Source: Macrostomum lignano (taxonomy: Eukaryota). From it: a DNA stretch of 64,000 bases. Numbering within the stretch: the first letter of the stretch is position 1; each line of letters starts with the position of its first letter. Below the pieces are notes generated by a model. The model saw only the letters and a program-made list of their open reading frames with translations, did no database searches and had not been told where the DNA came from. This document shows, piece after piece, positions 4,930 through 64,000 of the stretch. The position numbers and the translations under genes are program-made. Location of the stretch: assembly GCA_002269645.1 (NCBI GenBank), contig NIVC01002848.1:71727-135726 (forward strand), written 5' to 3'.

Positions 4930-7542
4930 ATGTCAATCAGAGGTGCAGGCGGCATTATTCTGATGGGTTTCGACCTTCGGGCTCCTTGTTAGGAAGCCTT
5001 CGGGCCTCAGGCCTCAGAAATGAATCAATTAGAGTCCTGGCCCCCCACTCCTGTCAGATGGTCAGCCCCATGGTAGCTTGATCGTGTGGCGAGCAGTCTA
5101 GGTCCTATAGCTAAGAGAGGGACAGCGAGAGACGAGCAGGGAGAATTTTGAAGGTAGAAATTAGCTAATCCGCAGACTAAAGCTAACTCGCTGCCACCAG
5201 CCCGTGCGTCCTGGCTCACCACACCGGGACTCTCGAAATCGGGCTTCCGACTAGAAGGGGCTTTGCGCTTACCTGCCAACTAGTGTCTTTTTGCTGTCAA
5301 TCTCGAAGTCATAGCCGATGATAAGGGACACTGCTGGGACTAGATCGCATTGGCCATGCAGGTACAGAGGGGACTTGTGCAGGGGATTCTTGCAGTGGCG
5401 AGACTATGGGGTAGCTACATGTACTATTACATTGCTAAATACGAAGATATGTACTTTTGGCCTTCAACGCGCCAACTAGCCTCTCATAGCGCTGATGATA
5501 GACTAACTCGAACTTCAGAGACCGCATGATTCATTACCCGAGCCGCTTGGCTAACCTAGAGTGCACAAAGTACATCTCTGGCGCCGATTCTGCACTTCTG
5601 GCAGTTTTGCTCACTGATTTGGTAGATTGATCGACTGAGAACCGCCTTGCCATTGGTCCACTGTGACCGGCGCCTACTAGCTTAGCTACTCATCTGAGCC
5701 ATCGGCGAACAAAGAAATAAAACCGATAAAAATAACTGTTAGATTTAACCTTCTCCTTAGATCACTTCGCACTTCAGATTGAATTGGAGTTTCAGACTAC
5801 TAGTAGTATTATTAAGTGATTTCTGCCTCAGTAACAGCACTACTGAACAAAATGAGCAAAAGTGTGCGCCTAATTCAGCTACTGAAACAGGGGACAGATA
5901 GGGGATCACCCAATCAAGCAAGTCTAGGTAGCCTCTCACCCAACCAATCAGAAACTCAACAGCCGGAGACCAGGAAATCCACAATGACCAAATCGGCTTG
6001 ATGCTTCGCAGCTGTAGACTCGGGATGATGCTGACACAATCTTCGCTGATAGCTAGCAGGTGATGATCTTCGCTTGATGTTCGCTGCTGACGACCGGGGG
6101 ACTCGTCCTTGATGATGATGGGGGGAAGTCGCAATCCGGGGATCAAGAAACGACGGTCGCGCTCCGGGAACCAGAAGTTGCGTGCTGGACCCGAGCAAGA
6201 GTAAGATGCGTCCGAGCGGGCCAAAAACTCCGGTTTAAATAGCCGCCAACTGGACCGCAGTTTGTTATAACGGAACACGTCGATTCTGATTGGCTGAGTC
6301 GTTTTGTTAAAATGAGCGCCGAATTTTCTGATTGGCTAAGCTTGTTGCTACCCAGAATCACGTGACCAAGAGATCCTATCAGTTCCCACAGGGTCGTAAA
6401 AAGATGACAGGTGCGGCCATAAATCACTCAAAATCGCAACAAAATGATTTATGACTTTTCGCGTAGGATTGACAGAAATTAATGAAAAAATATACATTAG
6501 AAAGCTCTTATTAAATAGAAAGTGAAGATAATGAAGAGAAATTGCTAATCACTAATCCCAAAGTACTTTTAGGGGTAAAACGCATAGCTGTCAAAGCTGT
6601 CACACGCTCGAGTGAATCCGAACAATAGGCTCTGACCTCATAAATCTTGATGGCCTGTCAAAATGATGAGAAAAAAGCTACCGCCCGCATCCTCTCAGAC
6701 CATCTGGCGCCCGTCTCAACACTGAGTGAGGCGCAGGTGGCCGTCAGACCAACTTCGGAAGCGATGATTTACGACCCAAAAAGCTACGCCTATGTTATTA
6801 TGACTACTAGTATGGCCAGACATTATATCTAGTATAGATTCTATGACAATTTGCAGAAAAAGGATAAAAATGCCCATCGCCCACTGTTAGTAGGCTAGTA
6901 AGTTTAGAGCCCATGTGCTAGCGCGGGATTTGGGAAAAAGTGCGTCCTCATCAATTCTGGCGTTGGTTTGTCTCGGAATTGCTTCAGTCCATTCTGCTTC
7001 TGCCCCACGCGATGCTCTGGAAGGTAGGCGCGCTACCGAAACGTTTTTTTAACCTAATTATACTTTTGAATAGTTGAAGATCGAAATTCAGTCAAATAAA
7101 ACCTGTAACTTTATGCACTTACTTTCCGTTAGTGAACTAAGCGAGGCCACTCAAGGCTTGGATTGGGCTCCCATTGAACCATGACGAGACACTTGTTGGA
7201 AGTGAAAAGCTGTTCGATGCAGATGAGACGTCTTCTCTTCACAGGGCTAGTAACAGCAAGCGAGGCCGGTCCAGTTCCGGCAACGTGTTCCGATGGGGCA
7301 AGCGAGACTACGGCAACGTGTTCCGATGGGGCAAGCGAGACTACGGTAACGTGTTCCGATGGGGCAAGCGAGACTACGGCAACGTGTTCCGATGGGGCAA
7401 GCGAGACTACGGCAACGTGTTCCGATGGGGCAAGCGAGACTACGGTAACGTGTTCCGATGGGGCAAGCGAGACTACGGCAACGTGTTCCGATGGGGCAAG
7501 CGAGACTACGGCAACGTGTTCCGATGGGGAAAGCGAAGCTGA
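4930..7542 (+). pseudogene. GNVFRWamide neuropeptide precursor, disrupted by a solo LTR
   Basis: Joining 4930-4960 to 6958-7023 gives the signal peptide MSIRGAGGIILALVCLGIASVHSASAPRDALE. A phase-1 GT-AG intron (7024-7141) joins in frame to exon 7142-7542, which encodes 1x SSSGNVFRW-GKR and 7x DYGNVFRW-GKR (amidation Gly plus dibasic cleavage site). Confidence 0.9.
4961..6953 (-). mobile_element. Solo LTR (1993 bp), same family, diverged copy 2, inserted in a coding exon
   Basis: Termini TGATG...gcgtcctCATCA shared with copy 1; 4-bp TSD ATTC (4957-4960 and 6954-6957); colinear similarity with copy 1 over most of its length. Confidence 0.9.
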
Positions 7543-14639: not shown

Positions 14640-16895
14640 CTGCAGCTCAGATCCTCCGATCCCTGTCCCGGGGCTCAACCCGGCGAAAGAGAGCGACTTC
14701 GATGTTGGACCCATCACTGTGAGTGAGGTTCGCTATGCGCACTTGACAGGATGAAGCCTGATGCTGCTGCGGGCCTCGGTGACACCCCCCTCAGCTCGGG
14801 TGCTCAAGCTGCCTGAACTGACGGACATCGTCACGGCTCTACTTAATACTGGTAACAACTCGCCAATCGGACGTGATCTTTCCACCCAGGCCCCAGAGAC
14901 GTGGCGCACCTCAAGAATGTGTCAATCCCGAAGGACACCTCGACCGACCTGAACAACCAGCTTGAGTGCACGCTTCCCAAACTGCTCAACTCGATACTGA
15001 GAAACAGCGGCTCGTGCGGGTCATCGACCCACTTCTGCTCGCCGTTCAGAGCGGATTTCGGCCGGGCCTGTCAACCACCGAGCAAATCGCTACCGTCCAG
15101 TGCATTGTCGAAACATGAAGGCTAGCTGAGGCACAATATAGTTAGCATTATCTTTGTTGATTTCATCAAAGCTTTTGACACCATATCGATCGCTCTGTCA
15201 TCCCCCTTATTTTGGCTGCTTACGAAGTTCCTCGAGCCCTCTGCGCGGTGACGGACTTCTACGAGGGTGCTTATTAAGTTCCCGGAAAATGAAGCTTGAA
15301 AATGCGCAAATCAAACGAAACTTCATCAGCAGTTAGGTGGGATGTTCCACGTTTGCTTGTAAAATTTCAGCTTAATCGATCGCAATGATCCACCGCAGTG
15401 GCCAAAGTTTGGCTGAAAAAGTGCCCCCCCCCTTGCCACAGCCGACTGACCGCGACAGGCGAGTGGCGATCCGGGTCCAGTTTCGGCTGGGCAGCTCTGC
15501 GGCCACCTGCCTCCAGACGCTGCGTGAGGCTCTTCGGGATCAAGCGCCATCCCAGTCGATGGTGTATGAGTTGTTTGCGCGCTTCCGCTGTGGCTCGGCT
15601 CGGCCACTCTGGACGACGATCCTCGCGAGGGGCGGCCAAGTTCGGCCGTGTCCGACGGAGTCGTTGCTGCTGTTCGACGTAACGTGGACGAAGATCCGCG
15701 AGTGACGATTCGCTGGTTGGAGCAGCTCGTCGAGGTGTCGGATTCCACCATCATTTAAGATCCTGCACCAGCACCTCCGCATGAGAAAGCTGTCCGCTCG
15801 CTGGGTGCCCCACCAGCTCAGCGCTGACCAGATGCGAGCCCGCATTAAATTCGCCGACCTCATGGCGGCCAGGTTTGACGGAGGCCGCTCAAAGTTGGTG
15901 GATAACATCCTCACTGGCGACGAAACCTGGGTCTACTTCTATGACCCAGAGACCAAAGAGCAGAGTCAAAGGAGCATCAAATTTCGTCGCGAGGGCAGCG
16001 TCGGAAAAGTGATGGCGGCCATTTTCTTCCGACGCAGCGGCATCCTACCGCCAGTGCTGCTGCAGCAAGGCGCCACAGTGACGGCAGAATGGTACAGCAC
16101 CGTCTGCTTGCCTCAGGTTCTGCAGGCGCTCGCACAGCAGCGGTCGAAGACGCTTGCCAGATGCATCTTCCTCCATCAGGACAACGCTCCCGCGCACCGG
16201 ACACGAGTGACCCAGGAGTTCCTTTAGGCGACCCAGCTAGTCCAGTTGCCGCATCCGGCATATTCGCCGGACCTGGCGCCTGCTGACTTCTTCCTCTTTC
16301 CCAGGATGAAGAAAAATCTGAAGGGGAAGCGCTTCGACTCGAGGGAGGAGCTGGTTGTTGCGCTGCAAGCTGAGCTGGACAGCTTCACCAAAGCTGATCT
16401 CAGGGGGTGCTTCGACGCATGGTTCCAGCGCCTACAAAAGTGCTTCGAATAGGGTGGAAATTATGTTGAGAAGTTATAATAGACTGTGGTCGCTGATTCG
16501 ATTATCAGAACTGAACTTTTCCGTGAGCTTAATAAGCACCTTTCGTAACACCAAAGTTTTTGTTTAGCTCGCACAGAGGATCGCACAGATTACTTCTCCA
16601 CCAGCTCTGGCGTCCTGCACGGGGACACCCTCGCCTCTTTCATCTGATCTATTACGTCCTCCGCCGCGCGCTCGAGAAAGAAGACGGCTTTGTCGTCGCA
16701 CGCCGCAGGAGCGGACGTTTCCCCGGTGTCACGATCGCTGCCCTCGATTTTGCTGGCGACATCGTCCACTCCTGCCGAGACCCGGAAGCCGCTCAGCGCA
16801 CCCTCACCCGCCTCTCTCATGAAGGCGAGCGAGTTGGCCTGAGAATCAGGCCCAAAAAACCGAGGTCCTGCACGTCGGCATCGCGAACGCCCCTT
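14640..16895 (+). mobile_element. Degenerate non-LTR retrotransposon (LINE, RTE-like) RT fragment, split by a mariner
   Basis: Frameshifted RT motifs: VIDPLLLAVQSGFRPGLSTTEQIA and IFVDFIKAFDTI to the left of the mariner; SSGVLHGDTLA and AALDFAGDIV (decayed YADD) to the right. Confidence 0.85.
15262..16545 (+). mobile_element. Mariner (DD34D) transposon, full length, inactive
   Basis: Imperfect ~28-bp TIRs (cgagggtgcttattaagttcccggaaaa / ttttccgtgagcttaataagcacctttcg); TA TSD; 1284 bp; motifs WVPHQL, TGDETW, HQDNAPAH and YSPDLAPADF; frameshifts and a stop codon. Confidence 0.95.
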
Positions 16896-21877: not shown

Positions 21878-23987
21878 CCATAGACAAAGTCATTCCTGCA
21901 CGGATGCTACGCAGAAGTGGCACAGCTCACAGCAAAACGGCAGAGTGAAATTGGAGAGTGAGCTTAATTAATAGTTTCATAGCTCTAGAGCTGAGCCATG
22001 GCTGCAATTATTAACTCCACTATAGCAACTGCACTAATTGACTTCAACTACTGCTCTGTAAGCGGTTGTACAACGGACGCGCTGGCAATTGTGTCAACGG
22101 AGAGCTGGAAAGAGAGAGCGAAGAAGTGCTGGCTTTGTCGTTAAGCATGCCCAACAGTACTGATGCGGAGCTGGAGCAGCTATTGGCTATCGAGCCGGAG
22201 TCGCTGTGCAACCTGGACGAGCTTGAGGAACTGGCTCGGCAACTGGAACGAGATAACCAATGCAAGTCTAGTGTCGCGAAGAAAGAGGCGATTGTCCGGA
22301 GGTTCACGGCCTGGTTGGCGGAGAACAACCTCCGCTTAGACTACAAAGATGCTCCAGAAGAGGATGTGGCTAAGTACGTTCGCTATTTCTACGCTCACCA
22401 GCGGAAGGCGGATGGGACGTTCTATTCCCCGAATACTATCGTTGGGATACGTGCCGCTCTTTTCCGCTACTTCATGAAGCTGCGTGGCCTCGACATCATT
22501 GCGGATCCAGCTTTTCATGCGCTTCATCCGTAGAGCGCTATACATCCGTCGCGGAAAGAAGAGAGAGACAATCGTCGCAGGCATGAGCGGGCAACCGACA
22601 CGTGCCCTGACTGACAGCGACAACGTGCAGTTCGGTGGCAGTGAGACTGCTTTGGCACCGGTTTCTACTGGTAACCAGCCTGTCATTACAACAACGTCAA
22701 GCGCCGGCGCATCCACTGTGACGGTTTCTACTGCCTTAACGAAGCGCATGAAGATCGTAGCTAACGGCGAACGCAACGTGGTGGAGTTTACATTTGAGTG
22801 ATATGTGATGCAGTCTACTACGCTCCAATATTGACTTCATGCTGACCTTAGCGTTACTTCTTTAAATTTATCGTCACTTTGCAATTTCATTCTTGTTCTA
22901 CGTTTCAGTATGTTTTAATGGTAGATTTATCTCTAGGTTTCGAGTGCGTAAATAGTCTTGGCACGAGTGCGCGTTAGCTACTGAACCAATTCTACCTGAG
23001 CTACTGACCCAATTCTACCTGAGCTAGTGAACCAATTCTACCTGAGCTAGTGAACCAATTCTACCTGAGCTACTGACCCAATTCTACCTGAGCTAGTGAA
23101 CCAATTCTACCTGAGCTAGTGAACCAATTCTACCTGAGCTACTGACCCAATTCTACCTGAGCTAGTGAACCAATTCTACCTGAGCTAGTGAACCAATTCT
23201 ACCTGAGCTACTGACCCAATTCTACCTGAGCTACTGAACCAATTCTACCTGAGCTACTGAACCAATTCTGCCTGAGCTACTGACCCAATTCTGCCTGAGC
23301 TACTGAACCAATTCTACCTGAGCTACTGACCCAATTCTACCTGAGCTACTGAACCAATTCTACCTGAGCTACTGAACCAATTCTACCTGAGCTACTGAAC
23401 CAATTCTGCCTGAGCTACTGACCCAATTCTGCCTGAGCTACTGAACCAATTCTACCTGAGCTACTGACCCAATTCTACCTGAGCTACTGAACCAATTCTA
23501 CCTGAGCTACTGACCCAATTCTGCCTGAGCTACTGAACCAATTCTACCTAAGCTACTGAACCAATTCTACCTGAGCTACTGAACCAATTCTACCTAAGCT
23601 ACTGAACCAATTCTACCTAAGCTACTGAACCAATTCTACCTGAGCTACTGAACCAATTCTACCTAAGCTACTGAACCAATTCTACATGAGCTACTGAACC
23701 AATTCTACCTAAGCTACTGAACCAATTCTATCAGCCGAGATACCGAAATTTAGGACTGAAACTTACATGTTCGCAGGCAAAAATATTTTCCAGTGCTGTT
23801 GTCACTTAATTAAAATAAATTATAAAGCCCTCTTATCCCTCTTATAGTCCAAGGGTGCGGTAAATTCCAATCTATCTATGTCTATGGCTAAAACCAGAAG
23901 AATGCTTTGCCCATAAATCAATGGCATTCTTATTTGAGCCAGCGTGCGGGAATGAAGGCAGTCGTGCAGGAATTAAATAATCTATGG
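21878..23987 (+). mobile_element. Internally deleted Crypton-like (tyrosine recombinase) element
   Basis: ORF 22066-22533 resembles the core-binding region of Crypton/DUF3504-family recombinases (FTAWL...VRYFYAHQRKADGTFYSPNTIVGIRAALFRYF...DIIADPAF). It is followed out of frame by a C-terminal tail (ALYIRRGKKRE); the catalytic core is missing. Ends are inverted: CCATAGA-N7-ATTCCTGCACG on both sides. Confidence 0.7.
22978..23730. repeat. Minisatellite, 23-bp unit (agctactgaaccaattctacctg), inside the Crypton-like element
   Basis: Tandem copies visible. Confidence 0.95.
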
Positions 23988-42778: not shown

Positions 42779-45700
42779 ATGCTAGGCTTAGATTTTGTCG
42801 ATTTTGTGCAGAAATGGCAGATTTCAAATTACGTAAGCGTTGAAGATTTCGCGGACAAGTTTAATTCGCTGTTCAGCACCCTACTGCTGATCCTATGCGC
42901 GCTGATTATCTCCGCTAAGCAGTACGTCATGCAAGCCCTCAGCTGCAACTGTCCCAAAACTAATGCCGGAAAAACTATTGAGTACGTTGAGAACTTCTGC
43001 TGGGTCACCGGGACTTACGCGATTGGCGAGCACGAGGAACTGCCAGTAAAGGAAGCCGGGTGGAAGCTGTTTGAGTCCAGGCGGATCAGTGAGAAGTTTT
43101 TATGAGTTTATTTTTGCGCGTTCCTGTTGAGAACATTAGCAGGAAAAACGAGAGAGCAAGCCTCGATAGAGCATGAGAAACGTGAGAGCAAGTCTCGATG
43201 GAGCATGAGAAACGTGAGAGCAAGTCTCGATAGAGCATGAGAAACGTGAGAGCAAGTCTCGATGGAGCATGAGAAACGTGAGAGCAAGTCTCGATGGAGC
43301 ATGAGAAACGTGAGAGCAAGTCTCGATGGAGCATGAGAAACGTGAGAGCAAGTCTCGATGGAGCATGAGAAACGTGAGAGCAAGTCTCGATGGAGCATGA
43401 GAAACGTGAGAGCAAGTCTCGATGGAGCATGAGAAACGTGAGAGCAAGTCTCGATAGAGCATGAGAAACATGAGAGAAAGTCTTGATAGAGCATGAGAAA
43501 CGTGAGAGCAAGTCTCGATAGAGCATGAGAAACATAAGAGAAAGTCTCGTTAGAGCATGAGAAATTGAGAGCGTACACAACCGCCCCGAGCAAGACACTG
43601 CTCAGATTCTACTCAGCAAGTATTTTAACAAAAATGTAACAAAGACACAATCACACGCCAAATAAAACATTTCAGATTACTACCAATGGGTGCCATTCAT
43701 GCTAGGCCTACAATGCGTCATGTTCTATCTGCCGCATCTAATCTGGGTTGCTATAGTAACAAATCGACTTGGTTCAGACGCGCAATACCTAGTAACGGAA
43801 GCCGCTTCGGTTGCTAAGGAAACCAGCATTGATCGCCGCGATCAGGTGTTGAATCACCTGGCTAATTCGGTGCTGCACATGCAGACCGTACACCGGGAGT
43901 ACAGCGATGGCCGATTGGCCAAATTCCGTAGCAAGCTGGTCCGCCTAGCCGGAGTCTGCTTTCCCAGCAAGCGACTTGGCACGGCGCTGGTGTTTGCCTA
44001 CCTGCTTGTCAAGCTGCTGTACCTGGCTAACTGCTTCGGTCAGCTGTTCCTAATGCACAGCTTCCTCGGCCTTGGCGGGCATCATTTGGCGGTTACTAAC
44101 CGTACCGCTGGAAGCTTGAATACCGCTGCCCGTCCCGGCTTGCTCGCCGAGATGCTGGGCTGGGACCTGGTGGCTGCCGTAGCCAGCGGGCGCGACTGGC
44201 ACTCTGGCATGTTCCCGAGGTCCACCCTGTGCCGAGTCAGACTGCTCAGCGTCGGTCACGAGGTTCTGGTGTGCCAGTGCGCACTGCCGGTCAATATGCT
44301 CAATGAAAAGGTAGAGCAAGGGGGATTGTGGAGTGGATGTTTTTACATTGAGCCCTTCTAGAGACCCTGACACTCTTTAGGAAGACCCTGACACTCTTCA
44401 GGAGACCCTGACACTCTTTAGGGAGACCCTGACACTCTTCTAGAGACCCTAACACTCTTCAGGAGACCCTGACACTCTTCAGGGGACCCTGACAGTCTTC
44501 AAAAGACCCTGACACCCTTCTAGAGACCCTGACACTCTTCAGGAGACCCTGACAGTCTTCAAGAGACCCTGACACCATTCTAGAGACCCTGACACTCTTT
44601 AGGAAGACCCTGACACTCTTTAGGGAGACCCTGACACTCTTCTAGAGACCCTGACACTCTTCAAGAGACCCTGACACTCTTCAGGAGACCCTGACAATCT
44701 TCTAGAGACCCTGACACTCTTCAGGAGACCCTGACACTCTTCAGGGGATCCTGACAGTCTTCAAGAGACCCTGACACCCTTCTAGAGACCCTGACACTCT
44801 TCAGGAGACCCTGACACTCTTCAGGAGACCCTGACACTCTTCAGGGGACCCTGACACTCTTCAGGAGACCCTGACACTCTTCAGGGGATCCTGACAGTCT
44901 TCAAGAGACCCTGACACTCTTCAGGAGACCCTGACACTCTTCAGGGGACCCTGACAGTCTTCAAGAGACCCTGACACTCTTAAAGAGACCCTGACACTCT
45001 TCAAGAGACCCTGACACCCTTCTAGAGACCCTGACACACTAGAGACCCTGACACACTAGACAGCCCGACACCCTAGAGACCCTGACACCCTAAAGACCCT
45101 GACACGCTTTTAGGGACCAAAAAAGACCTACAAGAGTTCCTGACACATTTCTGACTGAATTTGAGCATGAATAAGCACACAGCAACCCTGCAGAACTTAT
45201 ATAAATTAATCAATCAATTAAAACAAACTAAATTGTTATGGAACAAAATGGGCAAAAGCTAGTGTCTCAATAGATTATTAATACGTCACAGATCCAAGCC
45301 CGAAAGCATTTAAAACTGCACTACATCAGTTCAAAGCTTTAGTGCGAATGTTATTTTTAATTTAAAAACTGGATCCCCAGTTTTTTCTTTTGTTTAAGTC
45401 TGCTATCTCAGCAAACCACCAAATGAAAGCTGAAACTGTGCGAAATTATGCTGACTCGGCAAAATTTTAGCAAAGTTTTTTGCAAGTAGCTCGCTACCAA
45501 AATCTTTTTCATTTCTGCAACATCAGGGGTCTGATTACTGGTTTGCTATCCAGTTTTTGCGTCTGCTTTTGTCGCTCAAGAAAAGAATCCGAACATTTTT
45601 CTTTCCGTGGAGCTCGGCATTGACTTTGAATACAGCAGTGTGAAAGTTTTACATCCAAAACGGCAGAGGGAGAGACAGAGGGAGAGACAGAGGGAGAGAC

Positions 45701-51700: not shown

Positions 51701-52485
51701 AGGCAGAGAGACAGAGGGAGAGACAGAGGGAGAGAGGGGGATCGAGACAGAGGGAGAGACAGAGGGAGAGACAGAGGGGGACAGAGGGAGAAACAGAGGG
51801 AGAGAGAGGGAGAGACAGAGGGAGAAACAAAGGGAGAGGGAGAGACAGAGGGAGAGACAGAGGGAGAGACAGAGGGGGACAGAGGGAGAGACAGAGGGAG
51901 AGACAGAGGGAGAGACAGAGGGAGTGACAGAGGGAGAGACAGAGGGAGACAGAGTGAGTTTCAGAATAGCAGAAGCAGGTAGCGGGAATCATGCTCAGAG
52001 GCCATCAACCCCAAGCCAGATGACAAACGCCGCCCCCGCAGGTGTACATGATGCTGTGGCTGTGGACCCTGGCGGCAGCCTTCATCACGGTGCTCTCCGT
52101 GCCAGTCTGGTTTGCCAGAGTCGGCCTCCGAGTCAGCAGAATTCGCTTCATCCGACGCCAGCTGCTGCTGTCCCAGACTCCAATAATGACTGGCCATGAA
52201 TATCGGTCAGCCAGCACTGGCAAACCCAGATTAGTCGCAGATAAGTGCAACTTTGCCAAGATGGCCAAAGACATGGTGGACAACCTGCTGCACGCTGACG
52301 GCGTGTTCCTGTTCAAGATGATGCAGCTGAATGCAGGCGACGTCGCCGCGGGCCAAGTGCTGCGTCGGCTGTACGAGAACTGGAAGCATCAGCTGGCCGA
52401 CACGCCGGCAGAGAAGTTGACGATAAGTGAGCCTGGCCAGGAGAAACCGCCGAAAACTTCGGAGAAGAACTTAGTAGTAGTGTGA
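42779..52485 (+). CDS. inx: Innexin (gap-junction protein), 3 exons, 462 aa
   Basis: Exons 42779-43088, 43676-44310 and 52042-52485 splice in frame; signatures VEDFADKFN, KQYV, N|YYQWVPF, FPRSTLC and LPVNMLNEK|VYMMLWLW. Confidence 0.95.
43150..43570. repeat. 32-bp minisatellite in innexin intron 1
   Basis: gagcatgagaaacgtgagagcaagtctcgatg repeated. Confidence 0.95.
44360..45110. repeat. ~21-bp minisatellite in innexin intron 2
   Basis: gagaccctgacactcttcagg repeated. Confidence 0.93.
45662..51955. repeat. 6.3-kb purine-rich satellite, 12-bp core gagggagagaca, in innexin intron 2
   Basis: Direct reading; recurring variant blocks indicate higher-order duplication. Confidence 0.97.
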
Positions 52486-55604: not shown

Positions 55605-56580
55605 TCATGAATACTTGGTGTACTGCAGAGGCTCAATCTCTTGAGCTAAAAACTCGTGAACTTTTGGCCAGATCTCGTTTGAGTAGCTGCCAGTAAATTG
55701 CACTAGAAGGCCGCGCTGTCTGAAGTATTCTAGCACGGGTTCAGTCAATTCTTTGTAGTGCGACAGGCGCTCCAGTACCACAGACTCTTTGTCATCTTCG
55801 CGTTGGATTAACGGCTCGCCAGTGACGTCATCGAAGCCCTTTGGATAGAGGGGGGGGTGAGTGTACATTGGGGTTTGGCGTAGAGGATAGATAGAGAGCA
55901 AGTGTACATTGGGGTTTGGCGTAGAGGATAGAGGGGCGAGTGTACATTGGGGTGTGGCATAGAGGATAGAGGGGCGAGTGTACATTGGGTGTGGCATAGA
56001 GGATAGAGGGGCGAGTGTACATTGGGTGTGGCATAGAGGATAGAGGGGCGAGTGTACATTGGGTGTGGCATAGAGGATAGAGGGGCGAGTGTACATTGGG
56101 GTTTCACAGAGATTCAGAGAATAGAGAAGCAAGTGCGAATAGGGTTTATAAACAGTGTTTATAGTATCTGTGGTTTTGGCCCAAGATAGAGCCTGGGTGA
56201 ACATTAGGTTTAAAATAAGTTAGTAATGAGAACAAGTACATATTCTGGAATTCTGGAACATTTTCAAGCATATATATAACGCACCTCTCGCACAGGCTTA
56301 TTAAACTCTGTGTGATAAGTCCTCCCACTTCCCGGATGAATCCACCGGCCTTTAATACGTTCAACAATGACGTTAAACGGCACGTCAAGATTCATAACTC
56401 GATCAATTTGCACGCGTGAGCAAAGACTTTCAGCCTGCGGCAGTGTGCGCGGAAAGCCGTCTAATAGTAAGTGAGAATTTGCGGCAGCTTTGGATTGCTC
56501 TTCAATGATGAGCTCAAGTACCAGACTGTCTGGCACTAGTTCGCCGCGGTTCATGTACTTGCCAACTTCTAGACCGAGCT
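55605..56580 (-). CDS. AK3: Adenylate kinase, AK3-like (mitochondrial GTP:AMP phosphotransferase), last two exons
   Basis: Exon 56580-56285 (GELVPD, LLDGFPRTLPQAE, RWIHPGSGRTYH) splices in phase 0 to exon 55838-55605 (GFDDVTGEPLIQREDDK...EIWPKV). The P-loop exon is not in the window. Confidence 0.88.
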
Positions 56581-58809
56581 CTTGAAATGAGATTGGCGCG
56601 AAAGAAAATAATAAATATGGATACTATTCGGAGCGTGGACGTGTAATTATGTATGTACATGTAAGATACTAAACAAGAGATATTAGATAAGATAAAAAAG
56701 ATCTCATAGAGGGGCGAGTGTACATTAAGGTTTGGCGCAGAGGATAGAGGGGATAGAGGGACGAGTGTACTGTAGTGTGAGCATCTTTTGCGATAGCCTT
56801 GTATTCTATTAGTTGGGTTTTGCATTATTGTTATTGAATTATTATTTTGCTTTAGTTAGTCATACGTTTTTGGTGTACTTTTTCCTTGTTAGTTAGAATC
56901 AATTTTGCGTAAACAGGTTAGAGTTAGACGCCATTTGTGACTCAGCGGAGGGTTAAGTTGTCTGCGAACCCCAGCTTTGCGCGGTCAGCCAATCAGAACC
57001 GGCCTGGACCCTGGCACGCGGCAAGTTTCAATTCTACCCGGCGCCGCGGGCACAGTGCAATTCGGCTTAAGCAAGCGGCCGGCCAGACGACCACCACCCG
57101 GCTTGAGGGGGGTTTTGAGGGGTTGTGACTCTGACTATATATGAAAGTGTGTTTGGCAATCAGATCTCGCCTTCCTTTCCGCCTTCTCTTTCCCCGGTTT
57201 TGTCTTGTCCAGTTCCCGGCCGGTGGCCCGATTTCTCCTCTCTTGTTGGTTCGCGCTTTGAGGCGCCTGAATTCATCACCCCCGGTCCATATTTTTGTTC
57301 CCGCCCAACCGCTTTAGTCTTGTGGTGTAACGCCTACGGCAAATTCCTGTCTGAAGTCGTCGCTATCAAGCGCGGTTAGATAGAGACTGTCGGATCTGAT
57401 CAAGTACGCGGCCTCGATCCCGAGGGCCTCAGTGTTACACTGAAGGGCAGTGCCGATAGAATTTAGTCGGTACTCCGTTGAACGGTCGGTTCGGCAGGGC
57501 TCTCGTTTGAGTGTAGGTTCTGGCTTAGGCCAGGGGTTAGGAGTCTTTCTCCGTGGTCCTGTGTTCGGTTCTTCTCCTTCTTCTTCAAGCTGAGATCCGC
57601 TTGTCAGTGCGTAAAATAATCATTATTATTAATCGTTACTATTCGTTATCATCAGTCTAATTATCTGCGCCGCGAATTGCTTGAATCCTGTAGCTTGAAT
57701 AATCAAATTAAATCGTCTAACCAATTATCAGTTTGTATCATATAGGATTATCACTCTCTAAATCTTTCGGTTTGTGTTCCCTCGTGTTCTTTATTTTCTT
57801 GTACTGTACCTGCGGCTATTGGAGAAGACTGGTAGGACTCGCCGACCGGCGATAGGCGATTAGGATTAATAGCTTTAAAATCTCTGACGCTCCAAGTAGG
57901 TTTGTCTAGGGCCTAATTAATTGCTCACCGTGCATGCTATTTATCTAATTGCCTATTTATCACAGTACATTGGGGTTTGGCGTAGAGGATAGAGGGGATG
58001 GAGGGGCGAGTGTACATTGGGGTTTGGCGTAGAGGATAGAGGGGATGGAGGGGCGAGTGTACATTGGGGTTTGGCGTAGAGGATAGAGGAGGGGATAAAG
58101 GGACGAGTGTACATTGGGGTTTGGCGTAGAGGATAGAGGGGATAGAGGGGCGAGTGGACATTGGGGTTTGGCGTAGAGGATAGAGGGGATAGAGGGACGA
58201 GTGTACATTGGGGTTTGTCGTAGAGGATAGAGGGGATAGAAGGACGAGTGTACATTGGGGTTTGGCGTAGAGGATAGAGGGGATAGAGGGGCGAGTGTAC
58301 ATTGGGGTTTGGCGTAGAGGATAGAGGAGGGGATAAAGGGGCGAGTGTACATTGGGGTTTGGCGTAGAGGATAGAGGAGGGGATAAAGGGACGAGTGTAC
58401 ATTGGGGTTTGGCGTAGAGGATAGAGGGGATAGAGGGGCGAGTGTACATTGGGGTTTGGCGTAGAGGATAGAGGAGGGGATAAAGGGACGAGTGTACATT
58501 GGGGTTTGGCGTAGAGGATAGAGGGGATGGAGGGGCGAGCGTACATTGGGGTTTGGCGTAGAGGATAGAGGGGATAGAGGGACGAGTGTACATTGGGGTT
58601 TGGCGTAGAGGATAGAGGGGATAGAGGGGCGAGCGTACATTGGGGTTTGGCGTAGAGGATAGAGGGGATAGAGGGACGAGTGTACATTGGGGTTTGGCGC
58701 AGAGGATAGAGGGGATAGAGGGGCGAGTGTACATTGGGGTTTGGCGCAGAGGATAGAGGGGATAGAGGGGCGAGTGTACATTGGGGGTTGGCGTAGACGA
58801 TAGAGGGTC
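55850..58809. repeat. G-rich minisatellite (gagtgtacattggggtttggcgtagaggatagagggg core) in two AK3 introns
   Basis: Blocks at 55850-56100, 56705-56770 and 57965-58809. Confidence 0.9.
56771..57964 (+). mobile_element. Solo LTR (1194 bp) of a second family, inserted in the minisatellite
   Basis: TGT...ACA termini; 4-bp TSD GTAC (56767-56770 and 57965-57968); the repeat unit resumes exactly after it; CCAAT (~56988) and TATA-like ctatatatg (~57135). Confidence 0.85.
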
Positions 58810-59387
58810 AGTAGTAGTATGTTATAAGGGGCTGCGCCACACTTAATTGCTCGGGCGCATTGCGCGCCAGCTCGCTGGATGACTCAGCCCCTTATAACAT
58901 ACTACTACTACCAGGAGGTCATGGATTCAAGTGGGTGTGTGATATGTAAATATACATATATCTGTGAGTGAGGGTGTTGAGGGTGAGGGCATGTGGGGGG
59001 CATTGGCCTGTGGAATATTTCACCGAACACAGATTTTCCGGAATTTTTATACTTTTAAAAAGGGGGGGTGCCCTCGCCCTCATGCCCTCACTCATTTTGA
59101 AAATCACTAAAAATAAGTGAAAAATGACTAAAAACAGGTGAAAATGGTCTGAAAACAGCGATTTTTTGTGATTTTCTAATTTTTTTAAAAAGTGCAATTT
59201 TCACGATTCCAGCTCTAAAACCATGAGAAAAGTTGGATTCACGGGTCAATTTAATGCAATTTCAGGTATATACAATATGAAAGTGTCATCTAATTTGACG
59301 ATAGTAAATTTTATATATATAAAATGGCCTTCAGTAAACCATTATTTCTAGGAAATGCTTTAGATATTCAGTCAGGTATAGACATAA

Positions 59388-60158
59388 TTGACAATTAGGC
59401 ATAATCGCCATATAAAAATGAATGATAAAAATGAACACATCTATCCTGTGGTTGAGCTGCATGAAGCAGATTTGAGGGAGCGGGACTATTTCAATCAGAG
59501 AAAGGGTGAAATCAAAGGCAGTATTGAATGCATTACGAAAGATCTTACAATTTATAGCAAAAAGGTAAAAAAGTACAAACGACAAAGTAGCAGGATAAAT
59601 TGGATCAACATTGTGACAGGAAATGTAAGTCTCTTGGCTGCTACAGGAATTGGCATAGCAACATCGATACTGACATTGAATCCCTTAGTTATTGGAGTAG
59701 TAATCGGGGCAATGAGTGGTTTTGAAGCTGTAAAATCCACGTCGTTGTTTGCAACTGTGAAAATTCATTGCCAAAAGCAGAAGGCAAAATACATTGTTCT
59801 CAGAGATCTGGCCAATAAATACAGAGAGAGATTATATATTTACTCCCAAAAAGCAGTTGATGATTATAGATTAACTCTTGAAGAGGTTCAAGCAGCTACT
59901 GCAATTTATTCAGAATACAGAGAGAAAAGAGATCAATTGTTAGACGCCGGTGTTGCGCCTGAAGAAGTTAACCATTCGGAAGTCGTTGATAAAATTCTCA
60001 AAGAGAGTAGACTTGGTCATTCAGCGAAGGAAAAAATTAAAAAGGAACTGCTGGAGAAAGATCTGAGAGAAAAATTGGGTCTAGCCGATAAGCCAAAAGA
60101 GTACTCGGCAACACTCAATCTTCAATCAAATGCTCCAACTGCACCCCCCTATGCTTGA
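59388..60158 (+). CDS. Polinton-associated protein with a central hydrophobic hairpin, function unknown
   Basis: Intact 256-aa ORF (the true start may be MNDKNEHIYP); IYP...KKYKR...two hydrophobic segments...KAVDD pattern that I recall from ORFs next to animal Maverick polB genes. Confidence 0.65.
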   Translation: MTIRHNRHIKMNDKNEHIYPVVELHEADLRERDYFNQRKGEIKGSIECITKDLTIYSKKVKKYKRQSSRINWINIVTGNVSLLAATGIGIATSILTLNPLVIGVVIGAMSGFEAVKSTSLFATVKIHCQKQKAKYIVLRDLANKYRERLYIYSQKAVDDYRLTLEEVQAATAIYSEYREKRDQLLDAGVAPEEVNHSEVVDKILKESRLGHSAKEKIKKELLEKDLREKLGLADKPKEYSATLNLQSNAPTAPPYA

Positions 60159-60182
60159 GTCTGTTTAATTTTTTTCTTAAAA

Positions 60183-63100
60183 ATGGAAAGGAAAATACCA
60201 GCGGCCTCTTATGAATATGATCTCGACACCGTTGAAGAAATTCACGGTTTAATCTCCCCAATTCTTTCTAAACATTTGATGGCTAGAGATTCAATAAAAT
60301 ACAGAATTTCCTTTGTCGCAGAATTTTATAAAGGAACTACCGACAGTTGGATTGAGTTCCAATATCATTCAAAGTATCGAACTTTGTTAAATCTGCTTCA
60401 AGTTGAAGATAGTATTGAAAGTACAATAAGGGATGTTCTGGATGAATTTGATGAATGGAAGGATAGTTTTAATGAAAGGGGATCGGGATATTATTTTGTT
60501 AAGTTAGTAAAGATTGTGTTGAAAGTTGTTGGCATTAATCAGTTGAAAGGAGGAACTTATATTTCAATTCCAATTAAATCAAACGCATTAGTAAATGTCA
60601 AGAACACTAAAGACAATAGGTGCTTTCTCTGGTCTATTTTAGCAAAGCTCCATCCTGTGAAGGAACATAGATATAGAGTTGGTAAGTATACACAGTATAT
60701 AAATGAAATAAACTTAGGAGACGTTAAATTTCCAGTGGACATTCGAGATATCTCTGACATTGAAAAGTTGAACAGTCTTCATATAAATGTGTTTGGATTA
60801 AGGGATATAAATACTAAAGAGTCAATATATTCTATTCGTCTGACAGAAGATTACGACAACCCCAATGTTATTGATTTACTACTTGTCAAAAATCATTATT
60901 GTTTAATAACAGACTTGTGTTTATTCCTCACGTCCCAAAATTACAACAGGGTTTTTCTTTGTCGAAAGTGTCTTCAAGTCAAATACTCCCAGGATGCACT
61001 GGATAATCATAAAGCAATCTGTAATGACTTCAAAGTGTCAATTGAAGTTCCAAAGATTGATAAGAGGATATTAAAGTTTAAAAACTACCACATGAGTGTA
61101 AGAAAACCATTTGTGTTTTATGCAATATTAGATTATGTAACGATGGATGATAAATCACTAGAGCTATCACAATGGACACTTTTTACTAGTTCCGACTATG
61201 AGGACATTATAAAATCAAATATTATTTCAAATACTACAGTGGAATCATTCGTTGAAACCGTAATAAAAAAGTTTGAGCATATAAAAAATGAAATGGATAG
61301 ATATAAACATCCAAGATTAAGTGATGTCGAAGAGACTGATTACAAAGCGGCAGAACAATGTTTTCTCTGCTCAAGGCCATTTGTAGATAGTAAAAAAATT
61401 CGAGAGCATAATCACTACAATGGTAAATATCGTGGCGCAGCATGTCAATCATGTAATACCAAAGAGGGCAAGGCGAATCAAACAGTACCGTTGTTTCTCC
61501 TGAATGAATCTGGAAAAGATCTAAACTATTTGATAGCTCCATTAACACGAATGAATAATAAAAAATATATATTGGATTTTATTTCTAAAACATCGGAAGA
61601 CCATGTTGCAATTAAGTTGGGGAATTATACCAGTGGTGTTGTGTTTTTAGATGGATCTAGGTTTTTGGAACCACCATTTACACTCTCTAAAGAAGAAATA
61701 AAATATTTGCCACCCAGTGATACAACAGCAGTAATTAGAAAGATTTACTCATTTGTCAATGCTTTTGAGAAGTTTCGATCAACATTTTTGAAATATTTCA
61801 AGATAGATCCTGCGTATTGCTTTTCCCTTTCTGGATTATCGTGGGCATGTGGGTTGAAATATACTAATGTGGAATTGGAATTACTTGGTGATAAAGAAAT
61901 GATATCCATGGTAGAAAGTGGTATTCGCGGCGGTTTCTCTGGAGTTCTTGGAGATCGATATAAAAAAATGAATAACAAGTATTTAGAAAGTTATGACAGC
62001 AATTCTGAATCGTCGTACATGCTATACTTGGACAAGAATAATTTATATGGTGAAGCAATGATGAAAAATCTACCTGTGGGAGATTTCAAGTTTGAAAATG
62101 ATCTAGAGTATCACAAGAATATTCCTAATGGCAGGGGTTGTTTTCTTGAAGTTGACCTTCAATATACAGAGGAATGTAAGAAAGCTACAAGTAAATATCC
62201 ACTGGCTCCTGAGAAACGAACAACTAGGTTTGAGGATTTATCTGACATACAGAAGCAATACCTCGAAGTCGAAAAGAAAAAGTTTGTTCAATCCAAGTTG
62301 AATGTTGACATTTTACAACAAGGAGAAATATGTTTTACATCACAGACTACTTGAGTTTTATGAGAAGATGGGCATGCGAGTTGCGAGAGTTTATAGAATT
62401 CTTTCATTCAAAGAGTCAAACTGGTTGAGTAAATACATCGAATTTAATACCAGGCGGAGAATGGAAGCAAAAACTAAATTTGAGAAAGACCTGTGGAAAC
62501 TACTAAACAACTCATTCTACGGTAAAACAATCGAAAATGTAAAGAATAGGTCGAACTTTCATCTTGTAGCTGAAGAAAAAACTGCAAGGCGTTATTTTTC
62601 CAAACCAAATTTCAAAGATTTCATTATGTTTAGTGAGGATGCGGTTGGTATCCAAATGTACAAAAAGACAATTGCGTGTGACAAGCCAATTTATTTAGGA
62701 ATGGCTATTCTGGATTATGCAAAAATGTTCATGTACGATTGCTATTACAATGTTATTGAGAAGAATTGGAACAGCTGTCAATTGCACTATTCTGATTGTG
62801 ATTCGCTGATATTCTCAGTGATTACTCAGGATGTTTATGAGGATCTTGAAAAAATTAAAGAACACTTAGACACATCGGATTATCCAAGAGAGCATCCACT
62901 ATACTCCGAGACGAACAAGAAAGTCATTGGAAAGTTGAAAGATGAAATGAATGGCTCAATAATTTCCGAAGCTGTATTCCTGCGGTCAAAGGAGTATGCT
63001 TTCACTACAGTTTCAGGGGAGTGTGTTACGATCAAGGGGGTTTGATAAAAGCAGTACAAATATAAAGTTTGAAACATTTAAAAACATACTATGACAGATT

Positions 63101-63251
63101 ACAAAGATATTCAAAGAGGTAGAGTAAGTATGATGTATCTGAAAAAATAAAAATATATATTCGTGAGATTATGAAACAAACAATGAGTCCGTTAGATGAT
63201 AAAAGATATTATTTGGATCCTATCAGATCTATTCCTCATCAGCCAATGTAA
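60183..63251 (+). pseudogene. polB: Protein-primed family B DNA polymerase (pPolB), frameshifted in this sequence
   Basis: RCFLWSILA; endonuclease VII-like REHNHYNGKYRGAACQSCN; polymerase motifs YLDKNNLYG, KLLNNSFYGKT, YSDCDS, KVIGKLKDE and SPLDDKRY. One extra base at ~62301 and further indels after ~63037. Confidence 0.92.
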
Positions 63252-63272
63252 TCGCATTGATAACATCTTCGT

Positions 63273-64000
63273 TTATTTTTTTACACATAAAAACAGAACA
63301 TTTTTAGTTTCTTGCTGTTTACCATCTATCCTACGCCTATATCTATCCTTATAATACTTACAATAGTCATTGTGATTCTTGAAGAAATCTGTTATGTATT
63401 GTTGTTGGAATTCACGTTTCTCACGTTGGGCTAGAGTCCTATAGTATTCACTCTCTGTTGGCGGCAGTGTAAATTTCTCTAACAAGCATAAATGTTTTTT
63501 CCTCAGTTTCTAAAAATTCATAATTCTCTTCAAAGAAGTGAGCAAACCAATTACAATTCTGTATGAATTCATTAGTGTTTTCAATTACATTTTGAGATAG
63601 ATATATTTTCACCCTTTGTTTGCTTGAAAATTTCTAGTAGGTGTTTCATCTCAGAAACTTATATTTAGTCTTAAACTCCTCACTTTTCAAATATGATCGG
63701 CCTTGCTAAGTGTGTTTCTCAGGCATCAATGATTTCGTTATCTGTTGTATATTTGCACGGGTAATTAATATTGATAATTTCCTCTTCTCTGCATCTCCAA
63801 TATTTTGTCTAAAGTCAGGCTTGTTATTACATTCGACTATTAGGGTTGCGTGTTAAAACGACATTACACTGGCTTGAATATAAATTTCTAGGCTTGGATA
63901 ACCCCACACAGTTAGTAATTTTATTGATGCATTGTTCAAGACACCACTTACTTCTTGACTGATAACTAACCTCTTTTTATTAATTTGTGCTAGGGGCTTG
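63273..64000 (-). pseudogene. D5-like SF3 helicase, C-terminal half, multiply frameshifted
   Basis: Manual translation across indels: LAQINKKRLVISQEVSGVLNNASIKLLT / GVIQA / RNLYSSQ / HATLIVECNNKPDF...DAEKRK / NWFAHFFEENYEF / EKREF...KNVLFLCVKK. This matches the Walker B, motif B' (ARxLY), sensor-1 (CNxxP) and Arg-finger layout of D5-like helicases. Confidence 0.7.

Follow-up and report, generated by a model that had tools for sequence, protein, structure and literature searches.

An animal Polinton polymerase with an eroded exonuclease beside a convergent D5-like helicase gene in Macrostomum lignano

Introduction

What kind of element sets a protein-primed DNA polymerase tail to tail with a helicase gene in an animal genome, and what would the one gene do for the other? 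The question is raised by the right-hand end of a 64,000-nucleotide stretch from the flatworm Macrostomum lignano (NCBI GenBank assembly GCA_002269645.1, contig NIVC01002848.1, positions 71,727 to 135,726 of the forward strand). This whole stretch is called the window below, and all coordinates refer to it. A gene for a protein-primed family B polymerase (pPolB) on the plus strand there converges with the remains of a gene for a D5-like superfamily 3 (SF3) helicase on the minus strand. An earlier note, made from the sequence alone, had recognized the pair, called such pairs typical of mavirus-type virophages and of some protist Polintons and Polinton-like viruses (PLVs), and suggested that this may be a distinct endogenous PLV lineage in a flatworm-like host.

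The element is best read as the left arm of a Polinton (Maverick) that inserted into the genome of a Macrostomum flatworm, a Polinton as judged by its polymerase and its left end. Its polymerase is of the animal Polinton type and has lost most of the catalytic residues of its exonuclease. According to PMC11161782, exonuclease loss goes with helicase gain in mavirus (helicase S3H) and in PLVs (helicase S1H), and compensation for fidelity is suggested. We give a probability of roughly 0.58 to the reading that the present element is an independent animal case, in which an exonuclease-dead pPolB initiates at the AGT end by protein priming while an SF3 helicase opens the fork.

The polymerase and its relatives

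The pPolB gene occupies 60183..63251 (+), about 1020 codons, and encodes a terminal protein (TP)-like N-terminus, a vOTU domain, a zinc finger, an eroded exonuclease, a palm (TPR1/TPR2) and a thumb. Its first frame (723 aa) finds 154 homologues at E<=1e-10. The best of these, at 94% identity, is PAA77928.1 from Macrostomum lignano, which bears out the flatworm host, and the next named matches come from Mytilus. Polymerase motifs A, B and C lie at 62025, 62497 and 62791; all three are kept, as are TPR1/TPR2 and the Cys-His pair of the vOTU, with PolC reading DCDS here and DTDS in relatives. The vOTU-type protease domain (60552..60938, +) retains Cys147 and His238. PMC11161782 regards the vOTU as the likely TP-releasing protease, and together with this conservation that suggests a catalytic role for the domain here. 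Within the exonuclease domain sits an endonuclease VII-like (HNH/zinc) insert (61350..61475, +; Pfam PF02945, E 1.8e-7), well conserved at 66% identity to near relatives.

A tree was built from 63 of the 120 listed pPolB matches by a quick method, with SH-aLRT as the only support measure and no mavirus sequence included. A 24-member exonuclease-intact group that includes the Mytilus elements forms the sister group of the two Macrostomum copies (SH-aLRT 100), and the clade formed by both is nested among pPolBs of spiders, insects, corals and a crinoid. The Macrostomum lineage itself is on a long branch (1.21). Queried separately, the vOTU, the start of the palm and the second frame all find their best match in the same Polinton pPolB group. 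An AlphaFold model of the first 723 aa has a mean predicted local distance difference test score (pLDDT) of 79. Searched by Foldseek against BFVD, it ranks an adintovirus fourth (E 2e-20) and mavirus twenty-second (E 3e-4, 13% identity); against PDB it finds nothing at E<=0.001, with phi29 polymerase second in the ranking.

The polymerase belongs among animal Polinton pPolBs, near the Mytilus elements, and is not mavirus-like in look. A mavirus or PLV origin of this gene was considered and finds no support in the nesting in the tree, in the Foldseek ranks, where mavirus is only a distant match, or in the best matches of the three regions. The left end described below, with its Maverick (AGT)n motif, likewise speaks against a mavirus-like or PLV-like lineage.

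In BFVD the polymerases that match the model best by structure bear the labels densovirus or parvoviridae and stem from datasets associated with birds; they are probably PolBs of the adintovirus or bidnavirus type.

Loss of the exonuclease

The earlier note identified the polymerase correctly and overlooked the state of its exonuclease, a remnant at 61101..61760 (+) that is both altered at its motifs and shortened in frame. Family B exonucleases employ four carboxylates and one tyrosine (PMC4974454). In the present protein the Asp and Glu sites of ExoI hold Ile and Asp (nt 61125). ExoII keeps its Asp and has Lys at the Tyr site (nt 61503 on). The Tyr and Asp of ExoIII are absent, falling in a gap of the MAFFT alignment and corresponding to Ala and Lys in the ungapped register (nt 61740). 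In total, three of the four carboxylates and the ExoIII Tyr are gone, and with them the ExoI/II/III conservation of canonical animal pPolB1. Compared with relatives, two parts of the domain lack about 20 and 70 aa (about 90 aa in total), both through in-frame deletions.

Among the 120 listed pPolB matches, 111 have D at the ExoI Asp site, 2 have N and 6 are gapped; the other Macrostomum copy alone has Ile. All four acidic residues are kept in 84 of the 92 relatives that span the region, the other 8 being gapped or showing one D-to-N change. Of the 87 relatives in which the anchor was found, 86 have the ExoIII Asp. PMC10748475 describes the exonuclease motifs as conserved in Polinton pPolBs from all taxon groups, which makes the present pPolB an exception. 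The literature searched, with few subscription papers and no Repbase, yielded no description of an exonuclease-dead animal Polinton pPolB or of the present element.

The erosion is concentrated in the domain. The ratio of identity to relatives over identity of relatives among themselves is 0.62 and 0.47 for the two exonuclease parts, against 0.81-0.94 for the vOTU, zinc finger, endonuclease VII insert and palm. The remnant still folds confidently in the AlphaFold model, with pLDDT mostly >78 over residues 330-560. PAA77928.1 shares the ExoI and ExoII changes and ends before ExoIII; these shared changes place the loss before the present copy. Because the exonuclease-dead copies are nested beside an exonuclease-intact group, the loss is derived. 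The 29 differences that separate the two Macrostomum copies are of a more conservative kind than random changes would be (p 0.006-0.035 for transition biases of 1-8), a weak sign that the lineage remained under selection after the exonuclease was lost.

The convergent helicase gene

The helicase gene enters the window at its right-hand edge and covers 63273..64000 (-), the C-terminal portion of about 240 codons; its 5' part lies past the window, its stop codon is at 63275-63273, and an AATAAA overlaps that stop. Among the named motifs of SF3 helicases, a Walker B-like motif is found near 63970, motif C near 63844 and the arginine finger near 63790, all on the minus strand. One frame (63999-63451, with X at stops) was used as a phmmer query against 1.84 billion representatives and returned 81 matches at E<=1e-3, the best at 6.2e-19; D5_N or DUF5906 of Pfam is present in 36 of the 40 matches scanned. 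The best match also aligns collinearly, in another frame, to 63455-63291, the last 55 codons, which were outside the query, for a combined tblastn E of 4.8e-27.

The earlier note read the minus strand as a helicase core and C-terminal domain interrupted by indels, and called for a frameshift-aware profile search of 63273-64000. That alignment covers 63993-63294 with a score of 377, compared with 34.5 +/- 3.2 in 12 shuffles, and passes over seven breaks and one in-frame stop. The Walker B-like motif, motif C and the segment of the arginine finger all fall into register. The note's observation of a D5-like helicase next to polB is thereby confirmed. A profile of the helicase relatives finds poxvirus D5/E5 (E 1e-39) and C962R of African swine fever virus (ASFV; E 2e-22) in PDB. 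The alignment to the best match, a protein of 467 aa, starts at residue 215, at the window edge, so that Walker A and the upstream part lie beyond base 64000. The pieces in the window, taken alone, give no D5 match in Pfam or PDB. A word-indexed search with them scored none of 225 candidates, PHROGs returned only an unnamed family (6.6e-5), and an ESM Atlas search with the last 78 aa gave nothing informative.

The ancestry of the helicase is sketched by a tree of 63 of its 190 matches, from which a repeat protein was dropped, and which is unrooted and built without mavirus, PLV or Repbase references. In this tree the helicase falls loosely among D5-like proteins of environmental origin, to which it is 30-40% identical, and its end branch is long (1.65). 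The closest full-length relatives are proteins of 800-970 aa with PriCT-2 and D5_N, some also with a Prim-Pol or AEP domain. Hyperionvirus sp. is the sole named taxon among the 120 listed profile matches. No animal-encoded relative is named among those matches or among 17 helicase clusters, a weak negative result, since most of the records are nameless. A tblastn search of phages with the best helicase relative gave, in the 25 records listed out of 49, only primase matches at 22-29%, and a scan of bacterial and archaeal genomes for helicase context gave 74 pattern matches, of which none was confirmed. The helicase appears to be the only part of the element that looks foreign.

Two of the helicase relatives are T5orf172-D5 fusions, like mobile helicases discussed in PMC11296320.

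The gene pair and its frame breaks

The two genes converge with 21 nt between their stops (63251 and 63273), and the gap holds no repeat or end motif. GC content at third codon positions (GC3) is 0.30 in pPolB and 0.31 in the helicase, compared with 0.46 and 0.66 in two host exons, and overall GC is likewise matched between the two genes. By these signs the helicase seems to belong to the element, as the earlier note had assumed.

Reading frames are broken four times in pPolB (near 62304, 63046, 63093 and 63137) and seven times in the helicase (near 63890, 63850, 63779, 63721, 63650, 63610 and 63459), which also has an in-frame stop near 63706. Of the eleven breaks, ten have coordinates above 63040, a part that makes up the final 21% of the coding span (p 1.4e-6). 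They occur on both sides of the gene boundary, about as densely in the 3' end of polB as in the helicase. Decay confined to the helicase was considered and is rejected, since the breaks continue into the 3' end of polB. An error in the consensus or decay, either of them local, would explain the pattern better than an earlier death of the helicase alone, and we infer that the breaks are mostly local sequence errors.

Left end and insertion site

The element begins at 58810, a sharp boundary directly after host satellite. The left end (58810..58909) opens with (AGT)3, in agreement with the Maverick end motif 5'-(AGT)2//(ACT)2-3' given in PMC8097293 as the commonest one of vertebrate Mavericks. 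Its first 25 nt recur inverted at 58885-58909, so that the motif is repeated 100 nt inward as (ACT)3 and the segment can fold into a hairpin whose stem is perfectly paired over 25 bp and whose 50-nt loop contains a small GC stem. The fold has an energy of -33.9 kcal/mol (z -6.6), and none of 200 shuffles is as stable. A self-contained miniature insertion is disfavoured, as the flanks of the hairpin show no matching 6-bp duplication. Known from one copy, the hairpin may be characteristic of the family, may have arisen accidentally by snap-back, or may be a miniature element.

A non-coding terminal region follows (58910..59417), the rest of the presumed terminal inverted repeat (TIR) or a promoter, which holds a 15-nt inverted pair (58983-58997/59077-59091) and a 21-nt tandem repeat (59100-59144). 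Self-BLAST of the 64-kb window found no partner TIR, a Pfam scan of 58810-64000 found no RVE integrase, and no capsid genes lie within the same span; the element continues past base 64000, where its right end would be and, if present, the genes for major and minor capsid proteins, packaging ATPase and maturation protease. Any virophage-type or PLV-type capsid gene, or the tyrosine recombinase usual in PLVs, would likewise lie there. Between the terminal region and pPolB lies an intact open reading frame, ORF1 (59418..60158, +; 246 aa), for a hydrophobic, weakly SLATT-like putative membrane protein. Its Pfam match, SLATT_1 at E 0.029, falls short of the cut-off, and its ESM Atlas neighbours at 0.91 are unnamed Mollusca and Nucleocytoviricota clusters, a recognition below threshold and a lead only. 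ORF1 could encode a membrane or egress protein. At its C-terminus (60132-60158, +), after the hydrophobic SLATT-like region, stands a PTAPPY stretch, which we take to resemble overlapping PTAP/PPxY late-domain motifs.

The host flank outside the element (57965..58807) is a 47-bp satellite in 17.7 copies, abutted by the element. The same unit occurs at 56706-56770 and 55854-56102, within the region of a host adenylate kinase gene whose middle and last exons lie at 55605..56620 (-; Pfam ADK, E 3.7e-19, plus ADK_lid). A search for the P-loop motif did not find the first exon of that gene in the window, and the insertion is therefore probably intronic, in the first intron.

Other features of the window

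At 7141-7542 (+) a frame with about nine tandem NVFRWGKR units has no Pfam match; it resembles a neuropeptide precursor yielding amidated peptides. A broken mariner-type transposase remnant lies at 15540-16227 (+; Pfam Transposase_1, E 8.9e-6). The frame at 22042-22533 (+) also lacks a Pfam match and, by eye, seems to us to resemble the N-termini of Crypton-type tyrosine recombinases. At 26886-31700 (-) lie the exons of a membrane protein with an EGF domain (E 3.1e-8) and a single membrane pass, among them a long mucin-like repeat exon. Two innexin exons (+) at 43666-44361 and 52024-52485 (Pfam E 8.7e-32 and 7.6e-12) are separated by a GAGAGG-type simple repeat of about 6.5 kb (45.6-52 kb).

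Proposed mechanism and alternative explanations

The lineage would have acquired a D5-like SF3 helicase from an environmental primase-helicase pool of PLVs and giant viruses, while its own exonuclease decayed. From what is known of the family, pPolB would start by protein priming at the AGT-repeat end, and the vOTU would free the terminal protein. With the domain dead and shortened, proofreading should stop and strand displacement weaken, and the SF3 ring may then unwind the fork for an error-prone polymerase. In phi29 the exonuclease domain and TPR2 form a duplex-splitting tunnel, and mutants in the exonuclease metal ligands are defective in strand displacement or have lost it (PMC6351526); a dead and shortened domain should accordingly weaken displacement, and the lost catalytic residues leave a likely job for a helicase. 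That the helicase serves this polymerase is an inference, as is the order of its gain and the exonuclease loss.

Several observations weigh against this account. The two genes are seen together in one copy only, PAA77928.1 having no genomic context. With TPR2 and the Asp of ExoII still in place, the polymerase may retain some ability to displace strands on its own. Fast evolution is also seen in the TP-like N-terminus (identity ratio 0.67), which together with the long branch of the lineage means that part of the erosion may be general. Homopolymers occur at 3 of the 11 frame breaks against a background of 44%, an absence of enrichment that lends no support to sequencing error. The OmPLV helicase is fused to an exonuclease-intact pPolB (PMC12721341), so coupling of the two changes is not obligatory. 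Finally, since the closest full-length relatives carry PriCT-2 and some a primase domain, the helicase gene may be a second replicase.

This last point leads to an alternative that we consider unlikely, in which a replicase takeover is under way: the minus-strand gene would be a full primase-helicase (AEP- or PrimPol-SF3) that can replicate the element unaided, and pPolB would be becoming redundant, exonuclease first. The domain content of those relatives favours it, PMC11296320 proposes helicase invasion followed by PolB loss, and the 2026 preprint 10.64898/2026.10.13.758929 shows genomes with two replicases. In the PMC11296320 model, however, the helicase invades the TIR, whereas here pPolB is the end-proximal gene; and the polymerase keeps motifs A/B/C, TPR2 and the vOTU residues, with conservative differences between copies. 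The helicase might instead be there by coincidence, as a passenger gene, be it a mobile primase-helicase or the margin of a second element inserted in tandem, and have nothing to do with the exonuclease loss. Coral polintoviruses show a scattered, patternless distribution of helicases (PMC11131425), the preprint describes both mobile AEP-SF3 genes and tandem integrations, and no relative of this helicase exceeds about 40% identity or, among those listed, is named from an animal. We judge such a coincidence improbable in view of the short, featureless gap and matched base composition, and of an exonuclease loss that is absent from nearly all other relatives and present in the one seen beside a helicase.

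A functionally meaningless case, in which exonuclease loss and breaks alike are the post-insertion decay of a dead copy, could appeal to the 11 frame breaks and one stop and to the missing homopolymer signal. It is very improbable: the first 2.9 kb of coding sequence, the whole exonuclease region included, is unbroken, both exonuclease deletions are in frame, and the ExoI and ExoII changes are common to the second copy. The terminal hairpin invites a bolder extension of the preferred reading, with hairpin-primed replication of the parvovirus kind for comparison. Replication would have been rebuilt around an exonuclease-dead pPolB dependent on a captured helicase, independently of mavirus and Tlr1, with the displaced 3' end self-priming from its hairpin, giving a hybrid of protein and hairpin priming. 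We regard this as rather improbable.

If an independent animal case is what the element represents, it matters for a rule that rests on two old, deep protist-virus cases (PMC11161782), to which it would add a further one. The exonuclease-intact relatives at 40% identity are natural controls and the eroded domain is still in place, so the rule becomes testable, both in the order of gain and loss and in what the helicase makes up for: strand displacement, which the phi29 data suggest, or fidelity, which PMC11161782 suggests. It would also imply a flow of helicases from the environmental PLV and giant-virus pool into an animal Polinton, and predict that a flatworm used as a laboratory model carries an element that replicates with more errors.

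Comparison with known systems

Animal Polintons/Mavericks with pPolB1 (adintovirus-type) share with the present element the domain order, the vOTU, the endonuclease VII-like insert and the (AGT)n end motif. The closest group, with Mytilus edulis, M. galloprovincialis and M. coruscus named, is 40-42% identical, and M. lignano PAA77928.1 belongs to the same family. The present element differs from them in its lost exonuclease residues, its convergent SF3 helicase and its 100-nt terminal hairpin. PMC10748475 covers 20,702 integrase-linked pPolB1 loci, and its supplement catalogues M. lignano pPolB1 Polintons in 175 and 78 rows (350 and 156 accession mentions), and the accessible main text, where the word helicase occurs 0 times, makes no mention of one for them. 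The length of pPolB was tried as a means of picking sister copies from that catalogue and discarded: 19 of 70 rows (of the 78) have a pPolB <=1050 aa, and length by itself does not pick out the family. Four M. lignano rows of the supplement have a pPolB of 915-924 aa with an integrase start 1.6-2.0 kb upstream, and may be another short-polymerase family.

An SF3 helicase is less unusual for Polintons than the earlier note held: its pairing with pPolB is real, but SF3 helicases are known from this group (PMC3671162, PMC4405056, PMC11131425). The Polintons of PMC3671162 and PMC4405056, some of which encode S3H/D5-like genes, share that gene with the present element; hosts and exonuclease loss are not mentioned in the parts of those papers at hand. 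According to a figure legend in the preprint 10.64898/2026.10.13.758929, stand-alone SF3 helicases are placed on a tree of pPolBs, and animal cases may be among them. Environmental D5-like primase-helicases (PriCT-2/D5_N/DUF5906, a DNA primase of Hyperionvirus sp. being the named one) resemble the present helicase in core and C-terminal domain at 30-40% identity, and poxvirus D5 and ASFV C962R are its distant solved relatives; it has no close relative in the protein sets.

Tlr1-like pPolB-S1H fusions of PLVs and transpovirons share both exonuclease loss and a helicase (PMC11161782), but that helicase is of superfamily 1 and fused, whereas here it is of SF3 and encoded by a separate convergent gene. 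Mavirus-type virophages and pMVRE group 1 resemble the present element in their replication genes, with a remnant-exonuclease pPolB and a separate SF3 helicase (PMC11161782, PMC13215967). Here the exonuclease is degenerate, and the SF3 helicase is a separate gene whose N-terminal part, where any primase domain would sit, lies past the window. The supplements of PMC13215967, as searched, mention M. lignano only as one of the genomes screened. The present polymerase is not mavirus-like, and its exonuclease is eroded where that of the mavirus type is mostly deleted. By analogy, the replication module may work like that of mavirus in an element that appears to be no relative of mavirus.

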